A stretch of 64,000 nucleotides of DNA from Acidobacteriota bacterium (GTDB taxonomy: Bacteria; Acidobacteriota; UBA890; WLXD01). The notes under the pieces are model-generated. The model searched no databases and was not told where the DNA came from. It saw only the letters and a program-made list of their open reading frames with translations. The first letter of the stretch is position 1; every line of letters starts with the position of its first letter. Location: the NCBI GenBank assembly GCA_965248695.1, contig CBDFKD010000001.1, positions 61,411-125,410 of the forward strand, written 5' to 3'. A program made the position numbers and the translations under genes. Positions 4,066 to 47,297 of the stretch are shown here, piece after piece.

Positions 4066-5469
4066 CTAGGCGGCTGTCCCGGAGCGCCCGCTCAACGCTC
4101 GGCCAACTCCATACACCAGGATGCCGGCGAGCATGCCTGGCAGGATCTCGTAGACCGAGTCGGGATCGCCGAACGATCGCCACAGCAGCATGACAGCGAG
4201 AGACACGGACATCATGGTGATTCCGAGCTTGCTGCTGACGGGTTTGCCGAGCGCACGCAGAGCGAGCAGTGGGCCGAGCGTGCCGCCAAGGGCCGACCAC
4301 GACAGCACGACGAGATCGAAGACGCTCTGGCCGCCGGAGAACACGAACAATACCACTGCCGCGGTGACGGCCAGCGTACCGAGCTTTGCCCGCGCATAAG
4401 AGCTTTCCCCGGGTACGAGATCTTGCGTCAACGCCGCCGAGCAGGCGAGGATGAGCGAGTCCGCCGTCGAGATCGTCGCCGCGAACACGCCGGCAAGGAT
4501 GAACCCCACCAGGACGTCGGGAAGCAACAGCTGGGAGAGTGCCGGTAGGCCGAGCTCCGGATCGAACTCCGCCACGACCGGCAGCAGCACGCGGGCTGCC
4601 AGGCCGACGGTGATCGCGGCGCCGGCGAACAGACTGTAGTAGGTGATGTAGATGCGTCGTGACAGGGCGATGTGATCGGTGTTGTCGATCGTCATCGGCC
4701 GGATCATGACGTGTGGCTGGCCTAGAACGCCAATGCCGGCCGCTACCCAGCTGCCGAGATACAACGCGAAGCCGTATCGCAGATTGGCCGGCCTCCAGTC
4801 GATCAGCGAGGGATCGATGGCCTCGAGTTGGCTCCACATGATGCGGAAGCCGCCGATCTCCCCAACGGCCACCGCCATCAGCAAGAACATCGCCAGGAAC
4901 ATCACCGAGGCCTGCGCGGTGTCCGTCCAGATGGACGCTCGGATGCCACCGGCGAAGCAGTACGCCACGACGATGCCGGCGCCCAGCAAGACCCCGACGC
5001 TGTAGTCCCAACCGAAGAGCACCGACAGCGCCTTGCTCCCGGCGGTCAACTGCGCTCCGGCATAGGTGCCGAGGAAAATCATGCTGGCAGCAGCGGCGAC
5101 ACGGATAATGCCCTGTTGCTCCTCGCCGTCCGCCGACGTGCCCAGGAACCGGGTGACGCTGTTGGCCCCAACGCGCTCGCTGCGCTCCCTCAGCGGCTCA
5201 TGGATCCAGTGCCAAGCCAGATAGTCGCCGAACACCCAGCCCACCATGATCCACATCGACGACAAGCCGATGGCATAGGTTGATCCGATCAGGCCGATGA
5301 ACATGAAGCCGCTGTTGGCGGTGGAGACGGCGGACAGGGCCACCGGCCACGGACCGACCTGTCGACCAGCCAGCAAGTAATCGTCGGTCGTCTTCTGTCG
5401 ACGCGTCGACGAATAGATGCCGATCCCCAGAAACACCAGCAGGAAGAACAGAAAGCTCGTGGCGATCAC
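4066..5469 (-). CDS. Sodium:solute symporter (SSF family, PutP/PanF-like)
   Basis: 467-aa multi-pass membrane protein with an SSF-like N-terminus (FFLLVFLGIGIYSS..TDDYLLAGR). Substrate not assignable. Confidence 0.85.
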   Translation of the reverse strand: MIATSFLFFLLVFLGIGIYSSTRRQKTTDDYLLAGRQVGPWPVALSAVSTANSGFMFIGLIGSTYAIGLSSMWIMVGWVFGDYLAWHWIHEPLRERSERVGANSVTRFLGTSADGEEQQGIIRVAAAASMIFLGTYAGAQLTAGSKALSVLFGWDYSVGVLLGAGIVVAYCFAGGIRASIWTDTAQASVMFLAMFLLMAVAVGEIGGFRIMWSQLEAIDPSLIDWRPANLRYGFALYLGSWVAAGIGVLGQPHVMIRPMTIDNTDHIALSRRIYITYYSLFAGAAITVGLAARVLLPVVAEFDPELGLPALSQLLLPDVLVGFILAGVFAATISTADSLILACSAALTQDLVPGESSYARAKLGTLAVTAAVVLFVFSGGQSVFDLVVLSWSALGGTLGPLLALRALGKPVSSKLGITMMSVSLAVMLLWRSFGDPDSVYEILPGMLAGILVYGVGRALSGRSGTAA

Positions 5470-5749: not shown

Positions 5750-6427
5750 CTAGACGAGTCGCTCGCGCAGTGCCTTTGCTACCGCGCCGCTGCGCGAGTG
5801 TACGTGTAGCTTGTCGTAGATTCGGCGTATATGCGCGTCGACGGTGTGGTAGCTGACGTCCAAGAGGTCGGCGATTCCCTGCATTGTCGGGCCGTCTACG
5901 AGGAGATCGAGAATCTCACGCTCACGCGGTGTCAGACCGTACTCGTCGGAGGCGCGGCGCAACCGCGCGAAGGTATCCAGAAGCTTGCGCGCGATGAACG
6001 TATTGATCGGTGCGCCACCGGCGGCCACCTCGTGCAGTGCACCTACAATCTGCTCGGGTGACGAGCCTTTGAGCAGATACCCGGATGCGCCGGCGAGGAT
6101 CGCCTCGTAGACGACGTCGCGCTCGTCGTGAACCGTCAGCATGAGAATGCGCGAGGCCGGAGACTCGGCCGCCATGCGACCGCACCCCTCGATGCCGCTC
6201 ATTCCGGGAAGGCCGATGTCCATGAGCACGATGTTCGGTGTGTTGCCCGTGCGTAGCTCCGCCAGGGCTGCCTCGCAATTGGAGACAGCCAATCCGCAGT
6301 TGAACTCGGGCTCACCGCGCAACAGCTCGACGATCGTCGTCCGGAACAGATCATTGTCTTCGATCAGCCAGACGACCAGTGGTGATTCGGCGTGCGGACG
6401 GGTGTGCTTGTCGGCGAGCGGCTGCAT
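5750..6427 (-). CDS. NarL/LuxR-family two-component response regulator
   Basis: Receiver domain (VVWLIEDNDLF...VLMDIGLPGMSG) plus LuxR HTH (LTPREREILDLLVDG...SYHTVDAHIRRIYDKL). Start trimmed to the internal ATG at 6427 (MQPLADKH), because the 46 upstream codons of ORF 5750..6565 have no receiver homology. Confidence 0.85.
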   Translation of the reverse strand: MQPLADKHTRPHAESPLVVWLIEDNDLFRTTIVELLRGEPEFNCGLAVSNCEAALAELRTGNTPNIVLMDIGLPGMSGIEGCGRMAAESPASRILMLTVHDERDVVYEAILAGASGYLLKGSSPEQIVGALHEVAAGGAPINTFIARKLLDTFARLRRASDEYGLTPREREILDLLVDGPTMQGIADLLDVSYHTVDAHIRRIYDKLHVHSRSGAVAKALRERLV

Positions 6428-6599
6428 GTGAGTTTTCTCTGCGGATAGCTGCATGAGATAGAGCGTATCGCAGCACAGAGGTCGGGCCGTCACGAGGATT
6501 CGGGAGGTGACGATATTGACGACGGTGCCCCCGACGACGTAATCCATCGGGTATGCGAGGTCCAAAGCAAACCTGTCGCGTCACTCGGCGGACGTATCG

Positions 6600-10093: not shown

Positions 10094-10762
10094 ATGACGA
10101 TGCACTGCTGGTGGAAGATCCGGATCATCGCGTACGCAAACCACCAATTCCATACCGGCGCGACCGCCCGTTGCACCGCGATCGTGCTAGCGCTAGTGAT
10201 AGCAGGCACGGGCATGGCGTTGCTCGGGCGCGTCGAGGCCTCGGCGCGCCCCGCACCCGAGCCCCGTGCTAGCGCCGGTAGCGTGAAGAGCACCGGGTTC
10301 AGTGCCATGCAGATCTATGCAATCAACGGCACTGTCGCCGCAAACAAGCTTCCGGTGGTTTCAGCGTTGCTGTACCCGCCGGCGGCCAAGGCGAACGCGC
10401 GGTTCGATGTCCGGGTCTCGGCGATTGTCTCGGACGACAACCAGGATCCCCCAAAGAAAGGGTTCGGGAAGCTGGAGGTGACCCTCTACGCGGTTGATCG
10501 CAACGGTGGGGAAAAGAAAGTGGCCACCAAGCGGGCCAAACGGAAGGCGAGCACGGGCAGCGCCGCGGTTGCTTTCACCAAGATGAAAGCGCCTGGCAGC
10601 CACTATCGAGCCGAGGCCAAACCGGTAGGAGGCACCGTCGAGGGCGGGGGATTCACGATCATCGGGAGCGTCGGCGTTTCGGGTGGTGTCCGGGCGGCAC
10701 GACGTGTCGCGGCTGGAGAAGCTGCGCCCGGCGCGCGCCAATCGCGCGCGGTAGGCCAGTGA
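10094..10762 (+). CDS. Hypothetical secreted or membrane-anchored protein, paralogue 1 of a local family
   Basis: N-terminal hydrophobic segment TAIVLALVIAGTGMALLG. Its C-terminal ~110 aa align with the next ORF (VTLYAVDRNGGEKKVATK...AFTKMKAPGSHYRAEAK vs ATVYSVDRKGKKKKLASK...PFSRLKTPASHYLVEVQ). I recognise no known domain. Confidence 0.6.
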   Translation: MTMHCWWKIRIIAYANHQFHTGATARCTAIVLALVIAGTGMALLGRVEASARPAPEPRASAGSVKSTGFSAMQIYAINGTVAANKLPVVSALLYPPAAKANARFDVRVSAIVSDDNQDPPKKGFGKLEVTLYAVDRNGGEKKVATKRAKRKASTGSAAVAFTKMKAPGSHYRAEAKPVGGTVEGGGFTIIGSVGVSGGVRAARRVAAGEAAPGARQSRAVGQ

Positions 10763-11556
10763 GCGGCGTGGGTTCGGTCGTTCGCGCGGTTGCCCCCGCC
10801 GGACGCTCCGGTGGGGACGCGGCGTCCCGCCGCCCGTGCAAACGAATCGCCGCGGCTGTCGGCATCGTCCTCGTGGTTCAGCCGCTAGTGGCCTGTACCC
10901 TAATTTTCTCGGTGGAGAAGTCTCCATTTCTCCATACGATTTGTGTCGCGATGCGGATCGCGACCGGAGAACCTCAGTCACACGCTGATCGCGCATGCTC
11001 ACAAGGCGATTTCCGTGTTCGTCAGAGATGGATCGAGCTGCCACTAGCGAATCTCGGGGTGGGCGCAACCAGCTTCGGCACCATCACGATGGAAGGATTC
11101 CAGGTGAAGGGCACGGTGCCGGGCAGCAAGCTGCCCGAGTGGTCCCGGGCCGCGTACCCCGACCTCGCGACTCGCCGCGCTTCTCGGAGTGCGGCGAACC
11201 ACGACATCGTGGTGGCTGTGCTTGTCCTCGACGACGACCTGAACCCCGCAGCGGATGCCTTTGCTACCGCGAAGGCAACGGTGTACTCGGTCGACCGCAA
11301 AGGGAAGAAAAAGAAGCTCGCTAGCAAGACGGGAGCGGCTACACAGGATGAGGGCGGTGCGGTGATCCCGTTCTCCCGACTCAAGACGCCTGCAAGCCAC
11401 TACCTGGTCGAGGTTCAAACGGCCAAAGGCAAGGTGGTCAACGCGAGCGTGCTCTTCATGGCGTTGGTTACCCAAGCGGGGGCGACGGACGGGTTGCGTG
11501 GAGTCGTCGGCGGCCTACGACGCGCTCGAGCGCTGGCTTCGCAGTTCGTCGACTAG
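10759..11556 (+). CDS. Hypothetical protein, paralogue 2 of the same family; the N-terminal region contains a possible in-frame palindromic-element insertion
   Basis: The GTG overlaps the upstream stop (GTGA). Hydrophobic segment IAAAVGIVLVVQP, then a 53-codon lower-GC insert, then the conserved domain. The true start could instead lie downstream (GTG 11059 or ATG 11089). Confidence 0.5.
   Translation: MSGVGSVVRAVAPAGRSGGDAASRRPCKRIAAAVGIVLVVQPLVACTLIFSVEKSPFLHTICVAMRIATGEPQSHADRACSQGDFRVRQRWIELPLANLGVGATSFGTITMEGFQVKGTVPGSKLPEWSRAAYPDLATRRASRSAANHDIVVAVLVLDDDLNPAADAFATAKATVYSVDRKGKKKKLASKTGAATQDEGGAVIPFSRLKTPASHYLVEVQTAKGKVVNASVLFMALVTQAGATDGLRGVVGGLRRARALASQFVD
10885..11047. repeat. Possible short member of the CTAG-bounded element family (159-bp period, in frame with the host ORF)
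   Basis: The left end CTAGTGGCCTGTA is identical over 13 nt to the left end of the element at 28439. The right end GCCACTAG is identical over 8 nt to that element's right end. Local GC drops, and there are internal short hairpins (cgcgat-gcgg-atcgcg). Confidence 0.35.
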
Positions 11557-12425: not shown

Positions 12426-14210
12426 ATGGCCTCTGCGACGACGAACCGGTATCTGATAGTTGCCGCGCTGGTCATGACCTTGGCCTCCAGTGCCGCTTCC
12501 AGCGGCGCCCCAGAGGCGCGGCTGCGGTATGTCACCACGGCAAGGCAGCTCGGCCCCGTCGCGTACCGTGACCCGCTGGGGGTGCCATCGCCCGATGGGC
12601 GGTGGTTGGCGACACATGTCGGGTTGCGGCTGCGCGTCGAGCCTCTGGCTGGTGGGCCGGTGCGCGAGCTCGGTGACGGTCGGCGCCGCCGACTTCATCT
12701 GGCCTGGCGGCCCGACTCGCAAACACTGGTGGCGCGTGAGGCGGACCGCGAGCGCACCTGGTTCGATTGGAGCGAATACGACGTCGAGAGCGGCATGCGA
12801 AACCGGCTCTGGCCGGCGCTCGGCTCGTTGCGCCCGCCGGACGGGGAGGCGGCTGAGCGCCGGGATCTGTTGGAGGTCGCGTTCGCTGCCGATGGCTCCG
12901 TCGCCGGTCTGGTCGCGCGCGACACGGGGCGGCAGCTGTGGATCTTCGATGCGACTGGGTCGGTCCTGGAGACAGTCGGCGATCCCGGAATGCTGAGCAA
13001 CATTGCATGGAAGCCTGATGGCGGCGTGGCCTGCCTCGACGCGGATGGCGCCCGACCTCTGCTGAGCCTGGATTGCGGTCGTTCTCCGGGGTTGCTGGAT
13101 CTCGGCGAGGTCCGCGGTCCGGTGGCCTTTGACGGTGACGACGGCGTGTTCGTCGGACGACCGAACGACCGGGGTACGCTCGACCTGTGGCGCCTCGATT
13201 TGGCGTCCGGCGCAGCCGAGCAGATCAGTCAGTTTACGCGCGACACCTACGCACCCTACGCGCTGCCGAATGGACGCCTGCTGTTCAAGCTGCAGGAGTA
13301 CGCCGTCACCATCGCCCGCGTGGCGGCGGCCGGTGGTACCCCTCTTCCGGTCACGACCTTCCAATCGGAGACGCCGTCGTGGGACTGGACCGGCGAACAC
13401 ATCGCCTTCACGTACGGCAGCTGGCGCCGTGTCGTCGACGATGTGCACTACCCCGATATCGCGCAGCACGTCGGCACGGTGCGGGTCGCCGACGGCGTTG
13501 CCGATGAGCCACAGGAGGTGGTGCGTAGCTCCTACTCCGAGGACCAGGGCATGCACTGGTCACCGAACGGCCGCTGGATCGCGCTGCATTCGCACGCCGA
13601 CGGCACCGACGACATCTGGTTGCAGCCGGCCGACGGCTCAGCCGCGGCGGTGCCGATCACCGGCGGCGGCAACGAGACCGGTTGGCCGCGCTTCTCGCCG
13701 GACGGCAGATGGATCGTCTACTCCACCGACCGACGCGGGGCCGGTGAGCATCACGGCGTACTGCAGCTGGTCGGTTTCGACCAGGAGACCGGCGAAATTA
13801 CGTATCCGCAGCGCGACATCGAGCTCACCGATTTCGATGGCTTGGCGGGGTTCGCAGAGTTCGGCGCCGACTCACGCACGATTTTCTTCGAGGGCATGCA
13901 CGGGGTCGGAGAGCGCGCCGTGTGGAAGGTCGACCGGGACGGCGGCCGGCCGGAGCTGGTGCACCGCTATGGCAGCGAGCAGTGGGCCACGGGAATCTCG
14001 GTGTCGCCGGATAGCGACTGGGTCGCCTATATCGCCCCCGCCGCCGACGGCCGCATGCAGCTGTTCAGAGTGCCCTCCACCGGAGGCGATCCGGTGCAGA
14101 TCACCTTCGATCCGAGTGACAAGACCCATCCGTCGTGGTCGCCGCGCGGCGACCAGATTGCCTTCACGGTCTTCCGCTACCTGGCGCACTTTTGGCTCCT
14201 GGAGCCCTAG
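12426..14210 (+). CDS. Secreted PD40/WD40-like beta-propeller repeat protein (TolB-like)
   Basis: Signal peptide MASATTNRYLIVAALVMTLASSAASS. Repeated PD40 units WSPNGRWIALHS, FSPDGRWIVYSTD, VSPDSDWVAYIA and WSPRGDQIAFTV. Confidence 0.8.
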   Translation: MASATTNRYLIVAALVMTLASSAASSGAPEARLRYVTTARQLGPVAYRDPLGVPSPDGRWLATHVGLRLRVEPLAGGPVRELGDGRRRRLHLAWRPDSQTLVAREADRERTWFDWSEYDVESGMRNRLWPALGSLRPPDGEAAERRDLLEVAFAADGSVAGLVARDTGRQLWIFDATGSVLETVGDPGMLSNIAWKPDGGVACLDADGARPLLSLDCGRSPGLLDLGEVRGPVAFDGDDGVFVGRPNDRGTLDLWRLDLASGAAEQISQFTRDTYAPYALPNGRLLFKLQEYAVTIARVAAAGGTPLPVTTFQSETPSWDWTGEHIAFTYGSWRRVVDDVHYPDIAQHVGTVRVADGVADEPQEVVRSSYSEDQGMHWSPNGRWIALHSHADGTDDIWLQPADGSAAAVPITGGGNETGWPRFSPDGRWIVYSTDRRGAGEHHGVLQLVGFDQETGEITYPQRDIELTDFDGLAGFAEFGADSRTIFFEGMHGVGERAVWKVDRDGGRPELVHRYGSEQWATGISVSPDSDWVAYIAPAADGRMQLFRVPSTGGDPVQITFDPSDKTHPSWSPRGDQIAFTVFRYLAHFWLLEP

Positions 14211-14485
14211 CAGGCCGTGGTGAAAGTGTGGTGGGTCTGGCGACAGGGTCTTGCGAGGCGCAGGCCAGGAGAGAGGAGGAGGCGATGGTTACCCCATCGT
14301 TGACGACGAACGACGCAGCATACACGCGCAATCCCCAGTCGCCCAAAGGGTTACGGCGATTTGGGGCCATCTGCGGCGTTGGCCTTCCTCGACGATGGCT
14401 AGGGCATCGGGTGCGTCAGGCCGCCTTGCATCTGGCCCCAACTCGCCGTAACCAGACCCACCACACTTTCACCACGGCGTGCTAG
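14207..14485. mobile_element. CTAG-bounded 271-nt palindromic (MITE-like) element, subfamily A, copy 1
   Basis: CTAG at 14207-10 and 14482-85. The 30-nt terminal inverted repeats caggccgtggtgaaagtgtggtgggtctgg / ccagacccaccacactttcaccacggcgtg match 29/30. The element is 258/271 identical, with no indels, to 25065-25335 although the flanking genes are unrelated. Confidence 0.6.
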
Positions 14486-14506
14486 CGGCCTGTTACAGGC
14501 GACTAG
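14482..14506. repeat. Mini-palindrome CTAG-cggcctgt|tacaggcga-CTAG resembling joined termini of the subfamily B element
   Basis: The left 8 nt match the subfamily B left terminus tggcctgt 7/8. The right 9 nt match the right terminus tacaggcca 8/9. It shares its left CTAG with element copy 1. Confidence 0.35.
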
Positions 14507-21774: not shown

Positions 21775-21870
21775 CCTTCGGTGCCGGCGCCGACACCGCG
21801 GCGTCGTTGCCGCGAAGACCGTGGCCCGGGTCGGGCTCCGGCCTGGGCGCGCGGCGGGAGAAACAATGCC

Positions 21871-23418
21871 ATGAAGCGATGTGCATCGACCGTAGTCGTA
21901 CTGCTACTAGCGATAGCTGCTTGTTCCGGCACCGGCAACCCGTACGCGGAGAAGTTCACCTCCCTCGACACCAGCTGGGCGGTGACCGCCGACGAGGGCT
22001 ACGCGTGGGCGAAGGTGCGGGGTGACAACCTGCCGGCGCTGAACGGCAGCCCGGAGTTTCTCAGCTACCTCACCTTTCTCGAAGAGAAGCTCGTCGAGTA
22101 CGGCGCCGTGGACATGCACCGCAACACCTGGATGTTCGATCGCTGGGAGACGAGCTTCGACGACAGCGGGTGGTCGCTGGTGTCGGACGGCACACCGGTA
22201 CGCGTGGCGCACTACCAGGCGAACTCCGGCAACACGGGTCCCGAAGGCATCACGGCGGAGATGGTCTACTACGACCACGACAACCCGCCCGACGACATCG
22301 CCGGCAAGATCGTGGTGATCCCCACACGGCCCCACCCGGAGCCGCCGTACGACGAGCGCTACATCCAGGGCTTCACGTTCAACGACTACGAGTGGCGGGC
22401 CAACGACGATACGTACTGGGAACTGTTCGAGTTCGTGCCGCCGGAGTTCTCGATAACCTTCGATATTTGGTGGCAGCTGGGTCAGGGGCTGTGGCGGATC
22501 GCCGTCGACGGGGGCGCCGCCGGGCACGTGATCGTTTACGACATGGGGTTCGAGCGTACGGAGGGCCTCTTCACCTTCGGAGTGCCGCCGCTGCACGAGT
22601 CGCCAGGGGTGATCCTCAGCCGCGAGGATGGCGCTGAGGTTATCGAGGACGCCAAGGCGGGCAAGACAGCGACGCTGCGGCTGGAGGCGACCGTCCAGGA
22701 ATCGGAGGCCTTCCAGACGATCGTGTACCTTCCCGGCCGCGACTACGGGACGCCGGACGACGAGCAGATCCTGATGATCAACCATACGGACGGCTCGTCG
22801 ATTACGCAGGACAACGGCGCGCTCGGGTTGCTGGCGATCGTCAAGTACTTCTCCAACATCCCGCAGGAGCACCGGCCGCGAACGCTCACCGTCTTCCTCG
22901 ACGGCCGGCACTACTACCCGGGAGCGGAGCGGGCATCGGCCGACGTCAGCTGGCCGGTCCGGAATCCGGAGGCGCTGGAACCGCTGGTGGCCCTCATGCA
23001 CATCGAGCACATGGGCGAGATGGACTTCCGTGAGGTCGACGGCAGGTTGGAGGAGGTCGGGCTGGCCGAGCAGTCGTACCTGTGGACGCGCAACAACCAG
23101 GTGCTGATCGACGCGGCGGTCGCGGCAGCCCAGGAATACGGGTGGGAGCGCGTGCAGGTATCGGCGCCCGAGCGTCCGGGAATCAACGGGGGCCTGCAGC
23201 AGCGCTGGTGGGGCATTGCCGGGCGATTCCATCGCCGCTGCGACGACTGCCTCAACCTTCCGGGCTTCGGCCTAGGTGGCTTCCTGGGTCTGTACTGGAC
23301 GACCGCAAGCGGGATCGAGCGCTTCAACCAGGAGTTGTTTAAGAACCAGGCGCACACGATGACGGAGCTCACCGGCTTGCTGATGACCGCGGACCTTGAC
23401 GAGATTCGTCCCCAATAG
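21871..23418 (+). CDS. Lipoprotein with PA (protease-associated) domain and M28-like peptidase fold, tandem paralogue 1
   Basis: Lipobox LLAIAAC. PA-like [24 protein letters not shown] and M28-like [25 protein letters not shown]. Start trimmed to ATG 21871, with GGGAG upstream. Confidence 0.75.
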
Positions 23419-23429
23419 GAGGCAGCAAT

Positions 23430-25064
23430 ATGTGGGCCCACTCGCAACGACGCCTGGGACCGGGCGCCTCCACGCAGCCGCATCCGCGGGCGACCGTGGC
23501 ACGCTGGCAGTCGCTCGTCATCGCCCTGTCAGTCGTTGCACTGGGGTGCGCTGGTAGCAGCGACAACCCGTACGCCGACAAGTTCACCAACATTGACCCG
23601 GCCTGGGCGGTGACCGCCGACGAGGGCTACGAGTGGGCGCTGGTGAAGAGCGCCAACCTGCCGGCGATGAACGGCAGCCCGGAGTGGGTGAACTACGTCA
23701 CCTTCCTGGAGGACAAGCTGAAGGAGTTCGGCGTCGTCGACATGCATCGCAACAGCTGGATGTACGACCGCTGGCACACCTCCAAGGACAACACCGACTG
23801 GTCCCTGGTCTCTGATGGGGATCCGGTGCGCGTGGCTCACTACGCGGCCAACTCGGGCAACACCGGGCCCGAGGGCCTTACCGCCGAGATGGTCTACTAC
23901 GACCACGACAACCCGCCCGACTCGGTCGAAGGCAAGATCGTGGTGATCCCGACGCGGCCGCATCCGCAGCCGCCGTACGACGACGAGTACATCATCAACT
24001 TCACCTTCAACGACTACGAGTGGCGCGCCAACGACGACACGTACTGGGAACTGTTCGAGTTCGTGCCGCCGGAGTTTTCGATCACCTTCGATATCTGGTG
24101 GCAGCTGCGCCAGAGCCTGTGGCGGATTGCCGTCGACGGTAACGCCGCCGGTCACGTGATCGTCTACGACATGGCGTTCGAGCGCACCGAAGGGCTGTAT
24201 ACGTTCGGGGTGCCGCCGCTGCACGAGTCGCCCGGCGTGATCCTGAGTCGCGAGGACGGCGCCAAGGTGCTCGAGGACGCCAAGGCGGGCAAGACCGCTA
24301 CGTTGCGGCTCGAGGCCACCATCGAGGAGACCGAGGCGTACCAGACCATCTCCTATCTTCCCGGCCGCGACTATGGAACGCCGGACGACGAGCAGGTTCT
24401 GCTGATCAATCACACCGACGGCCCGTCGGTTACCCAGGACAACGGCGCGCTCGGGCTGCTGGCTATCGTCAAGTACTTCTCGCACATCCCCCAAGAGCAC
24501 CGGCCGCGGACGCTCACCGTTTTCCTCGACAGCCGCCACTACTTTCCCGGGGCGGAGGGTGCCTCACATGACACGAGCTGGCTGACGCGGAATCCAGAGG
24601 CCAAAGAGCCGCTCGTGGCGCTGCTGCAGGCCGAGCACTTGGGCGAGAACGACTATCGCGAGGTCGACGGCGTGGTCGAGCCGGTGGGCCTGGCTGAGCA
24701 GTCCTATCTGTGGTCGCGCAACAACCCGGTGCTGATCGATGCCGCGGTGATCGCTGCCAAAGAGCACGGGTGGGAGCGCGTACAGGTGGCGGTGCCCGAG
24801 CGCCCGGGGATCAACGGTGGCCTCCAGCAGGTTTGGTGGGGTGTGGGGTCCCGGGCGCTGCCCGGAGGTCGCGAATCCCTCGACCTGCCCGGCTATGGCC
24901 TCGGTGGATTCCTCGGGCTGTACTGGACGACTGCGTCGGGCATCGAACGGTGGAACAAAGAGCTGTTCGAGAACCAGGCGCACACGATGACGCAGCTGGC
25001 GGGTGTGCTGATGACCGCGGATCTGGACGAGATCCAGCCCGAGGAAACCGAATCTCAGCCCTAG
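23430..25064 (+). CDS. Lipoprotein with PA domain and M28-like fold, tandem paralogue 2
   Basis: SD AGGAGG 8 nt upstream and lipobox VVALGC. Collinear with paralogue 1 along the whole mature protein, roughly four-fifths identical by eye. Confidence 0.8.
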   Translation: MWAHSQRRLGPGASTQPHPRATVARWQSLVIALSVVALGCAGSSDNPYADKFTNIDPAWAVTADEGYEWALVKSANLPAMNGSPEWVNYVTFLEDKLKEFGVVDMHRNSWMYDRWHTSKDNTDWSLVSDGDPVRVAHYAANSGNTGPEGLTAEMVYYDHDNPPDSVEGKIVVIPTRPHPQPPYDDEYIINFTFNDYEWRANDDTYWELFEFVPPEFSITFDIWWQLRQSLWRIAVDGNAAGHVIVYDMAFERTEGLYTFGVPPLHESPGVILSREDGAKVLEDAKAGKTATLRLEATIEETEAYQTISYLPGRDYGTPDDEQVLLINHTDGPSVTQDNGALGLLAIVKYFSHIPQEHRPRTLTVFLDSRHYFPGAEGASHDTSWLTRNPEAKEPLVALLQAEHLGENDYREVDGVVEPVGLAEQSYLWSRNNPVLIDAAVIAAKEHGWERVQVAVPERPGINGGLQQVWWGVGSRALPGGRESLDLPGYGLGGFLGLYWTTASGIERWNKELFENQAHTMTQLAGVLMTADLDEIQPEETESQP

Positions 25065-25339
25065 CAGGCCATGGTGAAAGTGTGGTGGGTCTGGCGACAG
25101 GGTTTTGCGAGGCGCAGGCCAGGAGAGAGGAGGAGGCGATGGTAACCCCATCGTTGACGACAAACGACGCAGCATCCGCGCGCAACCCCCAGTCGCCCGA
25201 AGGGTTACGGCGATTTGGGGCCATCTGCGGCGTTGGCCCTCCTCGACGATGGCTAGTGCATCGTCTGCGTCAGGCCGCCTTGCATCTGGCCCCAACTCGC
25301 CGTAACCAGACCCACCACACTTTCACCACGGCCTGCTAG
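25061..25339. mobile_element. CTAG-bounded 271-nt palindromic (MITE-like) element, subfamily A, copy 2
   Basis: CTAG at 25061-64 and 25336-39. 30-nt TIRs match 29/30. There are 13 substitutions and no indels versus copy 1. The left CTAG contains the host gene's TAG stop. Confidence 0.6.
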
Positions 25340-25401: not shown

Positions 25402-27135
25402 ATGGGTCGTCGATCGTTAGCACTTGGCGTCATGACGCTGGCCCTCGTGTCCGGGCTGGCGCTCGCTCCGGATGGTCGCGGCGGCGAAGCGCGGCGCCAG
25501 GTGGCGGAAGCGGCCGACCTCGTCTTTCGCAATGGCGACATCTACACGGTCGACGCAGCCCGTACCTGGGCGAGCGCCGTTGCGGTGGCCGGCAATCGCA
25601 TCGTCTACGTTGGCTCCGACGCAGGCATCGGTCCGTTCGTCGGCGCCGAGACACGGGTCATCGATCTGGATGGCCGCATGCTCATTCCTGGTTTCCAGGA
25701 CTCGCACCTGCACCCCAGCGGTCAGAGCCTCGACCTGGCACAACTGGACAATCTGGTCGATAGCAGAGAGGTGCTGCGTACGGTGCAGGAGTACGCCGAG
25801 GCGAATCCAGATCGACCGTGGGTTCTCGGTCGGGGCTGGCTCGAAGCAGCGTTCAAGCCCGCCGGTGTCCCGACGCGCCAGATGCTGGACGAGGTGGTGA
25901 GAGACCGTCCGGCGCTGATGACCAACGCCTCCGGGCATCAGGGATGGGCGAACTCGAAGGCGCTCGAGATCGCCGGGATCACCGCCGAGACCCCGGATCC
26001 ACCGAATGGTCGCATCGACCACGATGAGCATGGCGAGCCCAGCGGGATTCTCCAGGAGGCGGCGCAGGGCTTGGTACGGCAACACATTCCGGCACTGACA
26101 CACGAATTCCGCATCGAGGCACGCCGAGCGGCGTTGCGCGAGATGGCGAGGCTGGGAATCACTGCCATCGTTGATGCGTCTTCCTCCGCAGCGGGCGAAG
26201 CCGAGTTCGCCGAGCTCGAGGACGCTGACGAGCTCACCGTTCGCGCCGTGCTCTGTCAGCGGTATCGTCCACAGCGCGACGACGAGGAACAGATTCGCGA
26301 CTTCATTGCCCGCCGTGCGGCGCTCGGCGCCGGGCAGCTGCGCGCCACCTGCGTGAAGATCGGCCTCGACGGCATTATCGAGCACCACACAGCCTCGGTG
26401 CTCGAGCCCTACGTTGACCGGGACGACGAGTACCGCGGTCCGATCTTCGTGGAGCCGGCGCGACTGAAGAGGGTAGTGGCGCGCCTCGACGCCGAGGGCT
26501 TCCAGGTTCATATTCACTCGATCGCCGACCGCTCCGCACGCGAGGCACTGGATGCCATCGAAGCGGCGCAGCAGGTCAACGGCACCGGCGGCGGACGCCA
26601 CCACCTGGCGCATCTTCAGCTTCTCGATCCGGCCGACATGCCGCGCCTACGTACGTTGGGGGTGACTGCCAACATGACTCCACTCTGGGGCAGGGGAGAC
26701 GACTGGGAGACCGTGTTCGCGGTGCGGGTGTTGGGGCCCGAACGCAGCCAGCGGCTGCTGCAGCACAGCTCGATCCTGGGGGTGGGGGCCAACCTCGCAT
26801 GGGGCACCGACTGGCCGGTGACCAGCCTGGTGCCGGTGGAGGGCCTCGAAACGGCGACGACCCGCCGCTATCTGGGCGGCATGGACCCTTACGGTGCGCC
26901 CGACGAATCGTGGCTGCCGCACGAGCGCCTGACGCTCGGCGAGGCAATCGCCGCCTACACAATCTCCGGGGCCTACCTGTCGTTCGATGAAGCGGAACGG
27001 GGCTCGATCGAGGTAGGAAAGCTCGCCGACCTGGTGGTGATGGAGCAGAATCTATTCGAGGTATCGCCGCTACAGATCCACGAGGTCGCCGTCGATATGA
27101 CTGTGTTCGACGGCCGCGTCGTGTTCGAGCGCTAG
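25402..27135 (+). CDS. Amidohydrolase-3 family metal-dependent hydrolase (YtcJ-like), secreted
   Basis: Signal peptide. ADLVFRNGDIYTVD...AVAGNRIVYVG...IDLDGRMLIPGFQDSHLHP and C-terminal GSIEVGKLADLVV. Confidence 0.85.
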   Translation: MGRRSLALGVMTLALVSGLALAPDGRGGEARRQVAEAADLVFRNGDIYTVDAARTWASAVAVAGNRIVYVGSDAGIGPFVGAETRVIDLDGRMLIPGFQDSHLHPSGQSLDLAQLDNLVDSREVLRTVQEYAEANPDRPWVLGRGWLEAAFKPAGVPTRQMLDEVVRDRPALMTNASGHQGWANSKALEIAGITAETPDPPNGRIDHDEHGEPSGILQEAAQGLVRQHIPALTHEFRIEARRAALREMARLGITAIVDASSSAAGEAEFAELEDADELTVRAVLCQRYRPQRDDEEQIRDFIARRAALGAGQLRATCVKIGLDGIIEHHTASVLEPYVDRDDEYRGPIFVEPARLKRVVARLDAEGFQVHIHSIADRSAREALDAIEAAQQVNGTGGGRHHLAHLQLLDPADMPRLRTLGVTANMTPLWGRGDDWETVFAVRVLGPERSQRLLQHSSILGVGANLAWGTDWPVTSLVPVEGLETATTRRYLGGMDPYGAPDESWLPHERLTLGEAIAAYTISGAYLSFDEAERGSIEVGKLADLVVMEQNLFEVSPLQIHEVAVDMTVFDGRVVFER

Positions 27136-27270
27136 CCGTTGTCGATGGGCGAATAGGCTCACTGTACTGAGTGCTAAGATACGCGCCGCTGGCCGGCCTG
27201 CGTGTTTCGGCCTTCCGGTGCGCTGTCACCAGTGGTGCCTCGATTTTGGACTTCTCGGTCGGACTGACGA

Positions 27271-28023
27271 TTGAACATTCGAGATCAGCTGACGCGAATC
27301 GCGAGCTTGCAAGACGCCGAGCTGCGCTTGGGACGGATCGAAGCCGAGCTCGCGACGCTGCCTGGCGAACGCACCGCTCGCCAGGAGCGCATCGCCACCG
27401 CCAAAGCGAACATCGAGACCGTCGAGGCCGAGCGTGACGAGTGTCTCAAGCGGCATCGTGCGTACGAGGGCGAGCTGCAGGACGCCGAGGGCAAGATCGA
27501 AAAGTTTCGTGAGACCGAGATGCTCGTGAGGACCAATACACAGCTCTGGGCGGTCCAGGCGGAGATCGAGCAGGCACAGAAGGCAGCCGGCAGCATCGAA
27601 ACCAAGATCCTCGAGGAGATGGAGCGGGCGGATCAGCTCGAGTCGGAGATCAGCCAGCGTGTGACGGATCTCGGCGAAGTGGAGCAAGCGACTCGATCGG
27701 AGATCCAGGAGATCGACAGGCGCCAGGCCGAGCTAGAGGTCGATCGTGACTCGCGGCTGGGCGAAATCGAAGAGCTTCGAGGGACCGTCGACGCGGCGCT
27801 GCGCGCCCGCTACGAGCGCGTCAAGACCCGCCGCCACGGGGTTGCGATCGGTGAAGCGGCGGAAGGTACCTGCCTGGCCTGCAACGTCCGCCTCCGCCCA
27901 CAGCTGTGGCTCGAGGTGCTGAACATGGAAGCGCCAGTGCAGTGTGACAACTGCCAGCGGATCCTCTTTGTGCGCGATGCACTCCAGCTACCCTCGTCGA
28001 TCAAGGTAACGGTCGACGACTGA
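27271..28023 (+). CDS. COG1579-type coiled-coil protein with C-terminal C4 zinc ribbon
   Basis: Long coiled coil followed by GTCLACNVRL...VQCDNCQRILF. TTG start as in the ORF track, so the start is uncertain. Confidence 0.8.
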   Translation: MNIRDQLTRIASLQDAELRLGRIEAELATLPGERTARQERIATAKANIETVEAERDECLKRHRAYEGELQDAEGKIEKFRETEMLVRTNTQLWAVQAEIEQAQKAAGSIETKILEEMERADQLESEISQRVTDLGEVEQATRSEIQEIDRRQAELEVDRDSRLGEIEELRGTVDAALRARYERVKTRRHGVAIGEAAEGTCLACNVRLRPQLWLEVLNMEAPVQCDNCQRILFVRDALQLPSSIKVTVDD

Positions 28024-28037
28024 GAGCCGCCGGTCCG

Positions 28038-28442
28038 ATGTTCGTTGCTCATATCGACGGCGCCTCGCGCGGCAATCCCGGACATGCAGCTTATGGCGTG
28101 CGGGTGTGCGATTCCGGCGGCGTCGAAGTGGCACGATTCGGCGAGTATCTCGGCCATCAAACCAATAACTACGCCGAGTACCAGGGCCTGATTGCGGCGC
28201 TCCGCTGGGCCCGAGACAACGACGTCGAGGCTTTCATGGTGCGCTCCGACTCACAGCTGCTCGTGCGGCAAATGCAGGGTCGCTACAAGGTCAAGAGCGC
28301 CACTTTGCGCCCGCTCTGGCAACAGGCGTCGGAGCTCGCGGAGTCGCTACGCGAGCTCCGCCTGGAACACGTCCGCCGTGAAAACAACGTCGAAGCGGAT
28401 TCGCTTGCCAACGAAGTGCTGGACGCCCGCCCGCGCCACTAG
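28038..28442 (+). CDS. rnhA: Ribonuclease HI (type 1 RNase H)
   Basis: DEDD residues in context: HIDGASRGNPG, TNNYAEYQGL, VRSDSQLLV and NNVEADSLAN. Confidence 0.85.
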   Translation: MFVAHIDGASRGNPGHAAYGVRVCDSGGVEVARFGEYLGHQTNNYAEYQGLIAALRWARDNDVEAFMVRSDSQLLVRQMQGRYKVKSATLRPLWQQASELAESLRELRLEHVRRENNVEADSLANEVLDARPRH

Positions 28443-28716
28443 TGGCCTGTAACAGATGAACGTTACCTATCGCAGATGGGATTTGCGGGTGAGATCAAGG
28501 CGCGGCGAGGAAGGCGATGCAATGGGCATCGTCGAGGAGGCGCAACGCCGATATTGCCTGCAACTGCCCATCTGTCCGGAGGATGATGGCGAAATCCGCC
28601 CGTCTGCGGCGTTGCCCCTCCTCGAAGATGGGCAAACATCGTCTCGTCGGTGCGCCTGGCATTCGGACCCATTTCGCCACCACGATAGGCAACGTTCATC
28701 TGTTACAGGCCACTAG
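28439..28716. mobile_element. CTAG-bounded 270-nt palindromic (MITE-like) element, subfamily B
   Basis: CTAG at 28439-42 (contains the rnhA TAG) and 28713-16 (contains the pgeF TAG on the other strand). The 30-nt TIRs tggcctgtaacagatgaacgttacctatcg match 29/30. Internal blocks are shared with subfamily A, for example a 32-nt block at 28/32. Confidence 0.6.
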
Positions 28717-29450
28717 CCACGATCGCCGACGCGGGAGGCCAACGAGATTCCCGCGAGCATGCGTCCGGCAGCGTCGCCGTCACGACGGTAGGAGTGGAAG
28801 GTGTCCGGTTCCGAGTACGTGCAGCGTCCGGTGGTCTGCACGCGAGATGGCTCCACACCGCACGCCTCGAGCTGATATCGGGCCGCGCCCGCCAGATCAC
28901 AGAGCCAGGTTTGGCGGGGGTCGCGCTCCGGGTCGAGCTCTTGGCGCGGCTCACTGAAGACGTCCGTCGGTAATCCAGCGGCACGGAAACTGGTCACGAC
29001 ATCGTCCGCCACACGGTACGCGCCGGGGCCGATGCACGGGCCCAGCGCTGCGTCGCAGTCCTGAGGATGGGTGCCGAATTCCCGCGCCAGCGATCCCATC
29101 ATCGCCGGTAGCACCCCGAGAGCGATGCCACGCCAGCCAGCGTGCGCGGCTCCGATCGAGCCGCTTCGGGCATCGAACACCAGCACCGGGAGGCAGTCGG
29201 CAGTGGCGATACCCAGCGTCAAGCCGAGCCGCCGGGTGATCAGCGCATCGCCGGCAGGACGATCGTCGATCGATGCGCTCTGGAACGGGGACAGGTCCGT
29301 GGTGGCGTCGATGAGCAACACGTCGCTGCCGTGCACCTGACGCGCTCGCACGAGGGGAGACGGTAGGAGATCACCGAGTTGTCCCTGCCGGGTCTCGAAT
29401 CCGTGCGCAGCAGCCAGCCCGGGGACGCGCAACACGCTCTCCGGTGCCAC
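28713..29450 (-). CDS. pgeF: Peptidoglycan editing factor PgeF (YfiH/DUF152, laccase-domain protein)
   Basis: RQVHGSDV...IATADCLPVLVFD...GAAHAGWRG...C.GP..Y motifs. Confidence 0.85.
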   Translation of the reverse strand: MAPESVLRVPGLAAAHGFETRQGQLGDLLPSPLVRARQVHGSDVLLIDATTDLSPFQSASIDDRPAGDALITRRLGLTLGIATADCLPVLVFDARSGSIGAAHAGWRGIALGVLPAMMGSLAREFGTHPQDCDAALGPCIGPGAYRVADDVVTSFRAAGLPTDVFSEPRQELDPERDPRQTWLCDLAGAARYQLEACGVEPSRVQTTGRCTYSEPDTFHSYRRDGDAAGRMLAGISLASRVGDRG

Positions 29451-29453
29451 AGC

Positions 29454-31187
29454 TCAGCCCGTAGCGGCCATCGACGACGGTGCCTCAGCAGCCACCTGCA
29501 GCGCTTTGTCCCACTGATTGGTGAGCGCCGGAAGCCCGGGGCCGACGTGCAGGTGTCCCCACGGTGTCGGCTCGGCGGGATCGCGCTGCCGCAGAAACTC
29601 CTGCATGGGTACACCGTGGGTCTCGGACCAGGTGCGGAATGCCTGGCGCCAATCGCCGCACTGATGCCATTCTTCGAGAAGATCGGCGACGCGACGATCG
29701 CCGCGCGACATGACCGCCTGGATCTCCGCCGCTCGTGGCGGCATGGCATCGATCACCAGGTTGGGGACCCTGGCTGCTCGTCGGCGCAGCCACTTGAGCT
29801 TGGCGCGGTAGCTGCGCGTGTCGAGCTGCGGCGCCCACTGGAGCGGCGTTCCGGGCTTCGGGATCAGGCAGTTGATCGACATGGTGATTGTGCCGATGCG
29901 GCCGCGGGCGCGGCCCTCGTCGATCATGATGTCGCGCATCTTTTGTCCGAGCTCGACGATGGCCTCGAGATCTTCGTCGGTCTCGCCCGGAAGCCCGATG
30001 ATGATGTAGTTCTTCAGGTTCAGCGCGCCGGCGCGGAATATCATGCGCGTCTTGTCGAGGATCTCCTCGTTGGTGATCTTCTTCATGATCAGCCGGCGCA
30101 TGCGGTCGCTGCCGGCCTCGGGGGCGATGGTGATCGTCCGTTGACCCGAGTCCACCACCGTTTGCAGCAATGGCTCACTGAGGGTCGAGATGATGAGGCT
30201 GGGGCTGAAGACGCGAAATCCACGCTCGCGGAGGCCCATGGCAATGGCCTCGATGTCCGGATGGTCGAGCAACGCTGTGGCTACCAGCCCGACGCGATCG
30301 GTATATCGCCGCCAGGGTTCCACTGCTCGCAGAACGTCTTCGACGCTATGAACACGGAAAGGCAGGATGCTGTATCCGACCCAGCAATAACGGCACCCCT
30401 TCGTACAGCCCCGCGCCACCTCGACCAGCACGCGGTCCCCCATCTCACTGTCGGGGGCGAGAATCGCGGTCGCGGCGACGCGGTCGGCGCCGTCGAAGCG
30501 CGCCCGTACCTTGGTGATCGTGGCGGGGGCCGGGGGTAGCGCTTCGAGAGCGGCGAAACGGGCGGCGGCACCTGGCTCGGGAGATTCGTAGCGCGGCTCG
30601 TAGAACGCCGGTACGTAGAAGCCTTGGCGTGTAGCGAGGCCCTCGAGGAGCTCCTGTCGAGACGAGGCCCCGAGCGCAGCATCCAGGAGCGGTGCCAGTA
30701 GCTCCTCGCCTTCGCCGAGACAGCAAACGTCGAGAAAGGGCGCCACGGGCTCCGGGTTGATCGACACCGCGGCACCACCCATGACCACGAGCGGGTGGCG
30801 CTCGTCGCGTTCGGTGGCGCGCAGCGGAATTCCTGCTAACTCGAGGATTCGCAACAGGTTGGGGTAGTCGTTCTCGAAGGAAGCCGAGAACGCCAGGACG
30901 TCGAAATCAGCGACCGGCGTCGTTGACTCGAGGCTGAATAGCCTCGTGCCGGTACGGACGTATTCGGCCAGATGCTCGTCGTCCGGAAGGAATACCCGTT
31001 CGCAGCTGACGTCCGGATGCGCGTTCGCCTGGCGGTACACGCTGTGGAGGCCGAGATTCGCCATGCCGACGGCGTAGGTGTTCGGATACGCGAGCAGCAT
31101 CCGGAGCCTGGCGCTGCTCGGCGTGGCGAGCGCGATTTCGCCGGCCAGTCGTGTGCGCGCGGTCTGGTGTAGGTCCAATCCGTACAC
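29454..31187 (-). CDS. B12-binding-domain radical SAM protein (TIGR03960-like)
   Basis: N-terminal LLAYPNTYAVGMANLGLHSVY and radical SAM cluster motif RGCTKGCRYCWVG. Start set at GTG 31187, because the ORF-track start (31295) would overlap ftsZ. Start uncertain. Confidence 0.8.
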   Translation of the reverse strand: MYGLDLHQTARTRLAGEIALATPSSARLRMLLAYPNTYAVGMANLGLHSVYRQANAHPDVSCERVFLPDDEHLAEYVRTGTRLFSLESTTPVADFDVLAFSASFENDYPNLLRILELAGIPLRATERDERHPLVVMGGAAVSINPEPVAPFLDVCCLGEGEELLAPLLDAALGASSRQELLEGLATRQGFYVPAFYEPRYESPEPGAAARFAALEALPPAPATITKVRARFDGADRVAATAILAPDSEMGDRVLVEVARGCTKGCRYCWVGYSILPFRVHSVEDVLRAVEPWRRYTDRVGLVATALLDHPDIEAIAMGLRERGFRVFSPSLIISTLSEPLLQTVVDSGQRTITIAPEAGSDRMRRLIMKKITNEEILDKTRMIFRAGALNLKNYIIIGLPGETDEDLEAIVELGQKMRDIMIDEGRARGRIGTITMSINCLIPKPGTPLQWAPQLDTRSYRAKLKWLRRRAARVPNLVIDAMPPRAAEIQAVMSRGDRRVADLLEEWHQCGDWRQAFRTWSETHGVPMQEFLRQRDPAEPTPWGHLHVGPGLPALTNQWDKALQVAAEAPSSMAATG

Positions 31188-31227
31188 TCGTCGATGATCG
31201 CGCGTCAGCGTTCGCCGCTGCGGCCTG

Positions 31228-32505
31228 CTAGTTGCGCGGGGTCTCCTGGTGGCGCAGGAAGGCCGGCACCTCGAGGTCGTCTTCCTCCAGATCAAACGCC
31301 TTGTACGCCGCCGCCGGTGTGTCCGCCGCCGGGTCCGGTTGGTTCCCCGCTGCTGCCGTGTCGGCTGCGAAGTAGGGTGCGTCCGCTGGTCGGGCAGGCG
31401 GCGTCACCGCCCCGCGGTGGGCCAGCACCGAGTCGTGCATGCTCGGGCATGCCTCGAAGCCGGTGGCGATTACCGTGACCTTGATGGTGCCCTCGAGTGC
31501 CTCGTCGATGACTGCGCCGAACAGGATGTTGGCGTCTTCGTCGGCGGCGGCGTGAATGATCGTCGACGCTTCGTTTACCTCGTGCAACGTCATGCCCGGG
31601 CCGCCGGAGACGTTGATCAGCACCCCGCGGGCGCCGTCGATCGTGGTGTCCTCCAGCAACGGCGAATGGATTGCGGCGTGTGCCGCCTCGGCCGCGCGCT
31701 TGTCGCCGTCGCGCATGGCGGTGCCCATGATCGCCATGCCCATGCCGGACATCACGGTGCGAACATCGGCGAAGTCCAGGTTGATGAGACCCGGGACGAG
31801 GATGAGATCAGCGATACCCTGGACTCCCTGATGCAATACCTGGTCGGCGTGACGGAACGCATCGATCAGCGGCGTATCGGGTGCCACCGTGGCCAGTAGA
31901 CGATCGTTCGGGACCGCGATCAGCGTGTCGACTGCCTCCTGCAGCTCCTTGAGGCCGAGGTCCGCCTGCATCATCCGCCGGCGCCCCTCGAACGAGAACG
32001 GCTTCGTCACCACCGCAACGGTGAGTGCGCCGAGCTCGTTAGCGAGGCGAGCGATCACCGGCGCTGCCCCAGTAGCCGTGCCACCCCCCAACCCGCCGGT
32101 GACGAATACCATGTCGGCACCCTCGAGCGCCGCGACGATCCGATCGGTGTCCTCGAGCGCTGCCTGTCGACCGATCTCTGGGTTGGCGCCGGCTCCCAAA
32201 CCGCGCGTCAGATTGGTGCCGAGCTGGAGCTTCGATGGCGCCGTGTTGGATTCGAGCGCCTGCACGTCGGTATTGGCGGCGATGAACTCCACGCCCTTGA
32301 GTCCAGCCATCATCATCCGGGTGATGGCGTTGCCGCCCCCACCGCCTACTCCGACCACCTTGATGTACGCGTTGTGACGCATCGAATCTCCCGGCAATAG
32401 CGTCATGGGGTGGTCCGAGAGAAGCGGGTCGGCACTCGCCGGTGCGGCGTCTGGAGCGCTCGATTGCTCGAGCTCCGGCTGCTGGGCCCACTTGTCGTCC
32501 GTCAT
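31228..32505 (-). CDS. ftsZ: Cell division GTPase FtsZ
   Basis: [14 protein letters not shown], tubulin signature [13 protein letters not shown], and a C-terminal conserved peptide [10 protein letters not shown]. Confidence 0.95.
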
Positions 32506-47171: not shown

Positions 47172-47297
47172 GGGAGAGTCGGGGGTCTGTGGCTCCAATG
47201 GCCTGGGGCGAAAGCTAGCCAGGGTTGTAAAGGGAGGCATTTTTTACAACACATGGGTTACTAGCTGGCCATGGAGCCACAGATCCCCGACTCTCCG
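47172..47297. repeat. Nested palindromic element in the rsmH-ftsL spacer: ~31-bp outer stem enclosing a CTAG...CTAG-flanked AT-rich inner palindrome
   Basis: The outer arms 47171-47203 and 47267-47297 are complementary apart from two 1-nt bulges and one G:T. The inner 42 nt between CTAG 47215-18 and CTAG 47261-64 contain gttgtaaa...tttacaac. Confidence 0.6.

Follow-up and report, generated by a model that had tools for sequence, protein, structure and literature searches.

We analysed a stretch of 64,000 nucleotides from an Acidobacteriota bacterium (GenBank assembly GCA_965248695.1, contig CBDFKD010000001.1, positions 61,411 to 125,410 of the forward strand), below called the window. A palindromic element of 270 nt, here named element B, lies at 28443-28712 of the window between the convergent genes rnhA and pgeF. 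We consider it quite probable that element B is a non-coding miniature inverted-repeat transposable element (MITE), i.e. a non-autonomous DNA transposon, of IS630 type that was inserted at a CTAG. Five characters of MITEs were examined and all five were found: a non-coding length of less than about 500 bp, terminal inverted repeats (TIRs), target duplication with empty sites, dispersed copies, and TIRs in common with an autonomous element. An earlier note on this DNA, made from the sequence alone, had taken the family to be undescribed; likewise, we found no description of it in the literature or in Rfam, and a plasmid collection held no relative of the element. This is a new MITE family with an ordinary mechanism, and what is noteworthy is a conserved, covarying core that stands behind the TIRs of unrelated transposase families.

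The features of element B and its two genes are as follows.

28038-28442, + strand: rnhA-like gene for an RNase H-type protein of 134 aa, stop codon inside the left CTAG
28439-28442: left flanking CTAG, the target or duplicated site, holding the rnhA stop TAG (28440-28442, + strand)
28443-28712: body of element B, 270 nt, between two CTAGs
28443-28472, + strand: left TIR, TGGCCTGTAACAGATGAACGTTACCTATCG, whose first 13-19 nt are the TIR of IS630-family insertion sequences
28472-28575: internal hairpin P2 of the conserved core (columns 30-138 of alignment A2), with the cap CGATGC-loop-GCATCG at 28515-28531
28585-28681: internal hairpin P3 of the conserved core (columns 160-263 of alignment A2), holding the block CTGCGGCGTTGCCCCTCCTCGAAGATGG that is common to subfamily A
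28683-28712, - strand: right TIR, ending in ...CGATAGGCAACGTTCATCTGTTACAGGCCA, a 29/30 match to the left TIR
28713-28716: right flanking CTAG, in which 28713-28715 is the pgeF stop TAG on the - strand; CCACGATCG follows
28713-29450, - strand: pgeF (peptidoglycan editing factor, YfiH family), stop codon inside the right CTAG

The earlier note had described this anatomy, i.e. 30-nt TIRs matching at 29 of 30 positions, placed between two CTAGs that hold the TAG stops of rnhA and pgeF, and it is confirmed at 28439-28716. In the window, TGGCCTGTAACAGATGAACGTTACCTATCG matches only at 28443-28472 (+ strand) and, with one mismatch, at 28683-28712 (- strand); it has no match in shuffles of the window. 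The left junction reads CGC CAC TAG directly before the TIR. The open reading frames (ORFs) that span the element are broken by stops in many copies, so that there is no conserved coding capacity, and we rejected the element as a coding sequence. The ORF at 28038-28442 scores as RNase H-type, with a best NCBIfam E value of 1e-37 that is under every curated cut-off; Pfam RNase_H and RVT_3 are recorded for its relatives. The ORF at 28713-29450 is PgeF (TIGR00726, 141.9 bits with a cut-off of 141.15). Exact-protein look-ups with the RnhA and PgeF of the window gave no record elsewhere.

Copies, empty sites and partner insertion sequences

The window also holds two copies of a related element of 271 nt, subfamily A. 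A block common to A and B was found at 14 loci in three Acidobacteriota metagenome-assembled genomes (MAGs) in a scan of species-representative genomes. Among the matches listed, the A TIR was found at more than 112 loci, spread over at least 12 MAGs of Acidobacteriota. The scan with the B TIR gave 21 loci, of which 20 lie in a single MAG, CBDAMQ. At least 58 distinct paired A-TIR copies were extracted, with a modal length of 271 nt and further classes of 164-174, 107-122 and 39-59 nt. The 21 paired B copies measure 270 nt (12 copies), 282 nt (6 copies) or, for a few, other lengths, and the B TIRs are conserved in all of them. CTAG/CTAG flanks surround 36 of 58 A copies, among the matches listed, and most B copies.

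Filled and empty sites were found for both subfamilies. Loci L014 and L192, from different MAGs and about 91-93% identical, provide two filled/empty pairs for A: each has a copy at a place where the other is empty, and the empty site is each time a single CTAG. For element B, locus L095 aligns with 25483-32463 of the window at 83.5% nucleotide identity and is collinear with it except for short indels. The gene order is that of the window, with ftsZ, a radical SAM gene and pgeF, then the convergent rnhA, a Zn-ribbon gene and an amidohydrolase gene. L095 is without exactly the 266-nt element region; its rnhA stop lies in a single CTAG and is followed by a 14-nt spacer and a pgeF stop TAA. The empty rnhA-pgeF site foreseen in the earlier note thus exists with one CTAG at the rnhA stop, but not in the exact form ...CCACTAGCCAC..., as the pgeF stop lies 14 nt further. 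In relatives at about 78% nucleotide identity the rnhA-pgeF spacers are 29 and 65 nt. These relatives are too distant to reveal the state immediately before insertion. When the element and one CTAG are removed in silico, the pgeF frame ends with GGC TAG and the rnhA frame with CAC TAG, both stops being intact; before insertion the stops would have overlapped in one junction, CGCCACTAGCCACGATCG, where both genes shared one CTAG.

MITE copies are 97-98% identical between genomes in which the backbone at the syntenic locus is 83.5% identical. Such a high identity points to recent amplification from near-identical source copies, or to exchange between lineages. Together with the empty sites, the 21 B and at least 58 A paired copies bear out the view of the earlier note that this is a mobile, structured, multi-copy family. 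There is hardly any probability that the element is immobile, either as a vertically inherited intergenic structured RNA gene or as a host repeat of the REP/BIME kind. Its strong secondary structure on both strands and its intergenic position would fit an immobile element, but the orthologous empty sites contradict this, since presence and absence differ at the same site with target duplication. The dozens of copies at unrelated loci, the TIRs in common with transposase-encoding insertion sequences, and the chimeric, nested and remnant copies also stand against it. So does Rfam: no element had a match in Rfam 15 at gathering thresholds, and the E-value mode gave chance-level matches only (21.9 bits against 106, and 19.7 against 137).

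A metagenome scan with the tip of the B TIR identified candidate partners. The element at L242 (849-1968) is 1,120 bp long, carries the B TIR tip with CTAG on both sides, and has the ends TGGCCTGTAACAG... and ...GTTCATCTGTTACAGGCCA. Its reading frames are frameshifted; joined, they reach 210 bits with the NCBIfam model transpos_IS630 (cut-off 100), and Pfam DDE_3 and HTH_32 are matched as well. Loci L264-L277 hold IS630-family elements of 1.12-1.13 kb with the same TIRs and with intact transposase genes of 334 or 354 aa (P0154, P0163, P0177). Their flanks are CTAG/CTAG nearly throughout these 14 loci, with one CTAG/CTAC. The partner TIRs read TGGCCTGTAACAGATGAAC.. at the right end (IRR) and TGG(A/C)CTGTAACA.. 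at the left end (IRL), and element B has 19 nt in common with the right end and 13 nt with the left end. We suggest that the B TIR is recognised by a putative IS630-family (DDE_3 + HTH) transposase. The partners come from other contigs and genomes, and mobilisation would take place in trans.

Three other candidates for a partner were rejected. A 2.2-kb TIR pair in L160 encloses ordinary genes only, and a 1.07-kb B-type TIR pair in L221 encloses an ordinary gene. A 1.4-kb repeat beside B-type ends is an IS110-family element. It encodes an RNA-guided transposase (NCBIfam transpos_IS110, 207 bits) and lies exactly between a CTAG and the first base of a B-type TIR, with at least 2 different genomic flanks (L172 about 6291-7697; L010 from 6640; L146 3499-4316), and its subterminal inverted repeat is ATGAGAAGGCC. 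The end of the IS630-type MITE appears to be its target, which recalls certain IS110 relatives that insert at the ends of other transposons.

Two further observations concern elements with B-type ends. At L265-L274, many copies of one IS630-family element (P0163) lie within the palindrome CCCCTC-CTAG-GAGGGG, which suggests that the P0163 lineage has a wider palindromic target context. The metagenome contigs L243-L263 carry MITE families of 157-160 nt with B-type TIR tips and unrelated interiors, flanked by CTAG, CTAA or TTAG.

Subfamily A has partners of another kind. These are 1.5-kb elements with CTAG flanks and the TIR CAG(G/C)CCGTGGTG(A/G)AAGTGT, for example at L120 and L230-L241, and they encode transposases of 461-464 aa with DUF772 and DDE_Tnp_1 (+ DDE_Tnp_1_6). 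The transposases stay under the NCBIfam cut-offs (IS1182 about 175 bits against 270; IS5_4 about 90 against 140), and their predicted placement in IS5/IS1182 is at the superfamily level only. The A-type copy at L120, about position 4360 in a Terriglobia MAG, has an early in-frame TAG, within a CTAG, in its transposase frame and is probably inactive. We rejected the idea that MITE A arose by deletion from its insertion sequence, since outside the TIR of about 20 nt the two have no significant similarity (z at most 2.3). In a search for an autonomous element, 203 A-type TIR ends had no sequence in common past about 360 nt inward.

Several observations weigh against B being an IS630-type MITE that entered a single shared CTAG by duplication of TA. 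Element B has only 13-19 nt of its TIR in common with the partners, and the remaining 11-17 of the 30 nt differ. No autonomous IS630-family or IS1182-like copy was found in the window or in about 1.1 Mb around MITEs in MITE-rich MAGs. The rnhA and pgeF stops of the nearest relative, L095, do not overlap but are 14 nt apart, and a degenerate pattern scan of metagenomes did not find the predicted pre-insertion site, ...CCACTAGCCAC... / ...CGCCACTAGCCACG.... Finally, three independent loci have matched non-CTAG pairs: CTAA/CTAA at L105, TTAG/TTAG at L240 and CTAA/CTAA at L244 (= L259). Such pairs are predicted by a 4-bp duplication and not by a pure TA model, which keeps the 4-bp reading alive.

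The duplicated unit and insertion at stop codons

At a CTAG target, the products of a 2-bp duplication (C-TA-[G...C]-TA-G) and of a 4-bp duplication are identical, and therefore the window copy cannot discriminate between them. The earlier note had proposed a 4-bp duplication of CTAG. Insertion at CTAG stands; the duplicated unit is more likely TA within a preferred C-TA-G than the 4-bp CTAG, although this is not settled. IS630-family elements duplicate TA and move by cut-and-paste (PMC2170065), and IS630 itself favours TA inside CTAG, going by the title of Tenzen & Ohtsubo 1991 as cited there (PMC2170065). When independent non-CTAG loci are counted over both types of MITE and of insertion sequence, about 14 mismatches affect an outer base only (TTAG/CTAG, GTAG/CTAG, CTAG/CTAA, CTAG/CTAC, CTAG/CTAT) and 2 an inner base only (L012, L236). 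Such an excess agrees with duplication of TA at an N-TA-N target that favours C and G as outer bases, the G...C being part of the element. Random decay of a 4-bp duplication would affect inner and outer bases equally. We lean to TA because of this excess at the outer bases and because of the IS630-family assignment, which the TIR gives.

It is improbable that element B was moved by an IS5-like instead of an IS630-type enzyme, with a true 4-bp CTAG (YTAR-type) duplication as in the IS5 group. We count for this alternative that the IS5 group makes 4-bp YTAR repeats, that matched pairs occur both as CTAA/CTAA (L105; L244 = L259) and as TTAG/TTAG (L240), and that sister subfamily A has a TIR common to insertion sequences of the IS5/IS1182 superfamily. 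However, the tip of the B TIR is identical to that of the IS630 family and to that of no IS5-like element found here, and the ratio of about 14 outer-only to 2 inner-only mismatches also speaks against a 4-bp unit.

For an IS630-type insertion into TA we propose the following mechanism. The B TIRs would be bound by a DDE transposase that belongs to the IS630 (Tc1/mariner-like) family and acts in trans; it would excise the element and join it into a TA, preferably within 5'-CTAG-3'. Gap repair would duplicate the TA and so give a CTAG on each side; under the TA convention, the element proper would be G-TGGCC...GGCCA-C. The target CTAG would have been the rnhA stop on one strand and, presumably, the pgeF stop on the other. 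The duplication would return to each gene its own TAG, and the insertion could persist because neither protein was altered.

CTAG is rare in the window, with 50 occurrences against 201 expected from base composition, i.e. an about 4-fold depletion in a genome with 66% G+C. The dinucleotide TA is depleted as well (1030 against 1854). Among the CTAGs of the window without MITE origin, roughly a quarter coincide with the stop of a plausible gene, as read from a table of CTAGs. Full-length MITE copies abut the TAG stop of a probable gene in 30 of 63 cases, and these 30 copies show no orientation bias relative to the adjoining gene (16 against 14). A TAG stop preceded by C would be a ready target at which insertion is neutral, since the duplication restores the stop, and insertions at intragenic CTAGs would be removed by selection. 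The depletion of CTAG, together with the frequent position of the remaining CTAGs at stops, would thus channel the elements to gene ends. The rnhA/pgeF junction would be the neatest case, with one CTAG serving both genes.

The common core, its fold and its ends

As judged from sequence comparison, A and B have a homologous core of about 210 nt. The interiors of A and B are 67% identical, within the window A and B agree at 75% over a stretch of 65 nt (repeat family D4), and B is 75% identical to the A-TIR copies termed 'C' over 184 nt (E 8e-26) and 72% globally. Alignment A2, with 37 copies, has one architecture of 268-274 nt, and a B variant with a 12-nt insert reaches 282 nt. The similar length and the shared blocks that the earlier note had seen in A therefore hold, with A copies of 271 nt. 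Its proposal of two diverged lineages of one family stands for the core and fails for the TIRs. The 30-nt ends of A have no relation to those of B, and their partners belong to different transposase superfamilies, IS630 for B and IS5/IS1182-like for A. The TIRs of subfamily A and of 'C' (CAGGCCGTGGTGAAAGTGT..) are those of the 1.5-kb IS5/IS1182-type elements. A third TIR type, CAGGGTGCTGAAAAACTC, is found on the same core at L122 (3673-3943) and L198 (about 170-319), and it matches a 1.3-kb IS5-family element at L184 (2596-3900; transpos_IS5_4, 275 bits) at 17/18 positions.

The element at L178 (88-359) is a 272-nt chimera with a B-like left TIR, an A-type right TIR and CTAG on both sides, which points to recombination between common cores. 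Abutting copies that share one CTAG are common (L008, L112, L137, and in the window A copy 1 with a B remnant), and an A-TIR fragment is nested within a B-type copy in L172. TIRs have thus been exchanged, and recombination between the cores of neighbouring elements is a plausible mechanism. Each insertion would regenerate two border CTAGs and so invite other element types beside the resident copy; the shared cores of adjacent elements would then recombine, and chimeras such as L178 would be intermediates. More speculatively, and with somewhat less than even confidence, we consider that the core of about 210 nt is a selected module, acting as RNA or single-stranded DNA, that was repeatedly re-fitted with the TIRs of CTAG-targeting transposases of the IS630, IS1182-like and IS5 families. 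A single structured passenger would then be carried by transposition systems of two unrelated superfamilies.

Folding of both strands had been suggested in the earlier note. A and B fold far better than shuffles on both strands (z -10.6 to -14.3). RNAalifold on alignment A2 gave a Y shape, consisting of a stem P1 formed by the TIRs and the internal hairpins P2 and P3. Over the 52 internal pairs, pairing is kept in 94.6% of cells, and in 28 pairs both partners have changed. The covariation score of 0.353 drops to 0.078 or less when the partners are slid by 1-3 columns, and the observed values were reached by 0 of 500 shuffles, except for 1 of 500 on one of five measures. A structure common to A and B is thus statistically supported. 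The structure was predicted on the same strand that was scored for covariation, and the double changes derive from only about three deep lineages. The compensatory hairpin change between A and B that had been noted earlier is found at alignment pair 79/86, a switch from G-C to C-G, where 17 sequences have C-G and 16 have G-C. In the TIRs, transposase binding by itself would lead to coordinated change, which is therefore uninformative on folding.

The element had also been described as a long imperfect palindrome. This agrees with the minimum-energy fold of B, a single long hairpin that in the window copy is 17 kcal/mol better than the Y shape. As the conserved fold, the long hairpin was rejected: it pairs 81% of cells and has a covariation score of 0.115, against 0.353 for the Y shape of TIR stem and two hairpins.

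We regard it as rather unlikely that the two-hairpin core is the selected part and the copies are useful, the TIRs being mere vehicles, with the core acting as RNA at gene 3' ends (a stabiliser or read-through block) or as a DNA structure. The pairing is kept across subfamilies through compensatory changes, the same core of the same length (268-274 nt) stands behind three TIR types, half of the copies lie directly after stop codons, and MITE copies are 97-98% identical against 83.5% for the backbone; all of this would fit selection on the core. However, the enrichment at stop codons is also expected from a CTAG target with purifying selection, and covariation between the arms can stem from hairpin-templated repair or from requirements of transposition, with only about three deep lineages supplying the double changes. 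Orientation bias is lacking (16 against 14), as is a clear strand preference of the fold. We found no intrinsic-terminator or promoter motif, and we rejected both functions for the element.

Known systems and further copies in the window

The closest known systems are the IS630 family, for example IS630 of Shigella and ISY100 of Synechocystis, and its MITEs. Element B has the IS630-type TIR tip and probably inserts at TA with a marked preference for CTAG, as is reported for IS630 (PMC2170065, citing Tenzen & Ohtsubo 1991), and like IS630-family MITEs it is small, non-coding and multi-copy, with a transposase that would act in trans. Nezha and RUP are MITEs derived from IS630. Element B differs in that its interior is unlike the insertion sequence beyond the 13-19-nt tip, so that it is not a simple deletion derivative, in that this interior is a conserved two-hairpin core which also occurs with TIRs of another superfamily, and in that its host is an uncultured member of the Acidobacteriota. 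The IS5/IS1182 superfamily (DUF772 + DDE_Tnp_1) resembles subfamily A and 'C' in TIRs and CTAG flanks, whereas B is without these TIRs.

The Correia elements (CREE/NEMIS) of Neisseria and the eukaryotic Stowaway MITEs also have TIRs and duplicate TA. They occur in hundreds of copies, often at gene ends and between convergent genes, and their transcripts form stable hairpins. Element B has no sequence relationship with them and measures 270 nt against roughly 100-160 nt. REP/BIME elements with RAYT and the PATEs of IS200/IS605 are, like B, short, structured, intergenic, multi-copy palindromes. These are mobilised by single-strand Y1 transposases and are without long TIRs or target duplication, whereas B has 30-nt TIRs, a duplicated target and DDE-type partners and does not fit either group.

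The odd 270-nt palindrome is explained as a harmless transposon insertion, and the annotations of rnhA and pgeF are intact. The same reading shows why such elements accumulate at stops in a genome that is rich in G+C and poor in CTAG, as the target is then provided by TAG stops that follow a C. It also adds an undescribed, abundant MITE family, with likely partner insertion sequences, in uncultured soil Acidobacteriota. If true, the finding of one core with unrelated ends would illustrate cleanly, in nature, that transposon superfamilies can exchange TIRs, and one could ask with this core whether selection maintains the secondary structure of MITEs or whether the structure is a by-product.

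The subfamily A copies and the B-type remnant in the window are as follows.

14207-14485, + strand: subfamily A copy 1 (14211-14481, 271 nt) and its two CTAGs; the left CTAG is the TAG stop of ORF 12426-14210
14486-14506: 17-nt B-type remnant, CGGCCTGTTACAGGCGA, with its right CTAG; its left CTAG (14482-14485) is common with A copy 1
25061-25339, + strand: subfamily A copy 2 (25065-25335, 271 nt) and its two CTAGs; the left CTAG is the TAG stop of ORF 23430-25064

By-eye comparison with the B TIR showed that in the 17-nt remnant the two B-type TIR tips meet at a CTGT microhomology. The remnant looks like a scar left by excision or like a B element that has lost its interior. Akin to it are A-type 'minis' with lengths of 39-59 nt in L115, L154, L173 and L184. 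Two tandem paralogous genes (21781-23418 and 23430-25064) have about 77% DNA identity (repeat families D2/D3); A copy 2 lies at the stop of the latter gene, for which NCBIfam has no family.

Two other CTAG-bounded segments were seen in the window. At 47173-47296, a 25-nt inverted repeat (96% complementary) surrounds a 74-nt segment, and inside this segment CTAGs at 47215 and 47261 enclose a 42-nt stretch of higher A+T. A further small insertion between CTAGs may thus lie within a palindrome here. At 10885-11047, a CTAG with TGGCCTGTAC (9/10 to the B TIR tip) is followed by 155 nt higher in A+T and a CTAG at 11044. This segment may be a different or degenerate IS630-type MITE, and it lies inside the mechanically called ORF 10759-11556, whose 5' part may be spurious.

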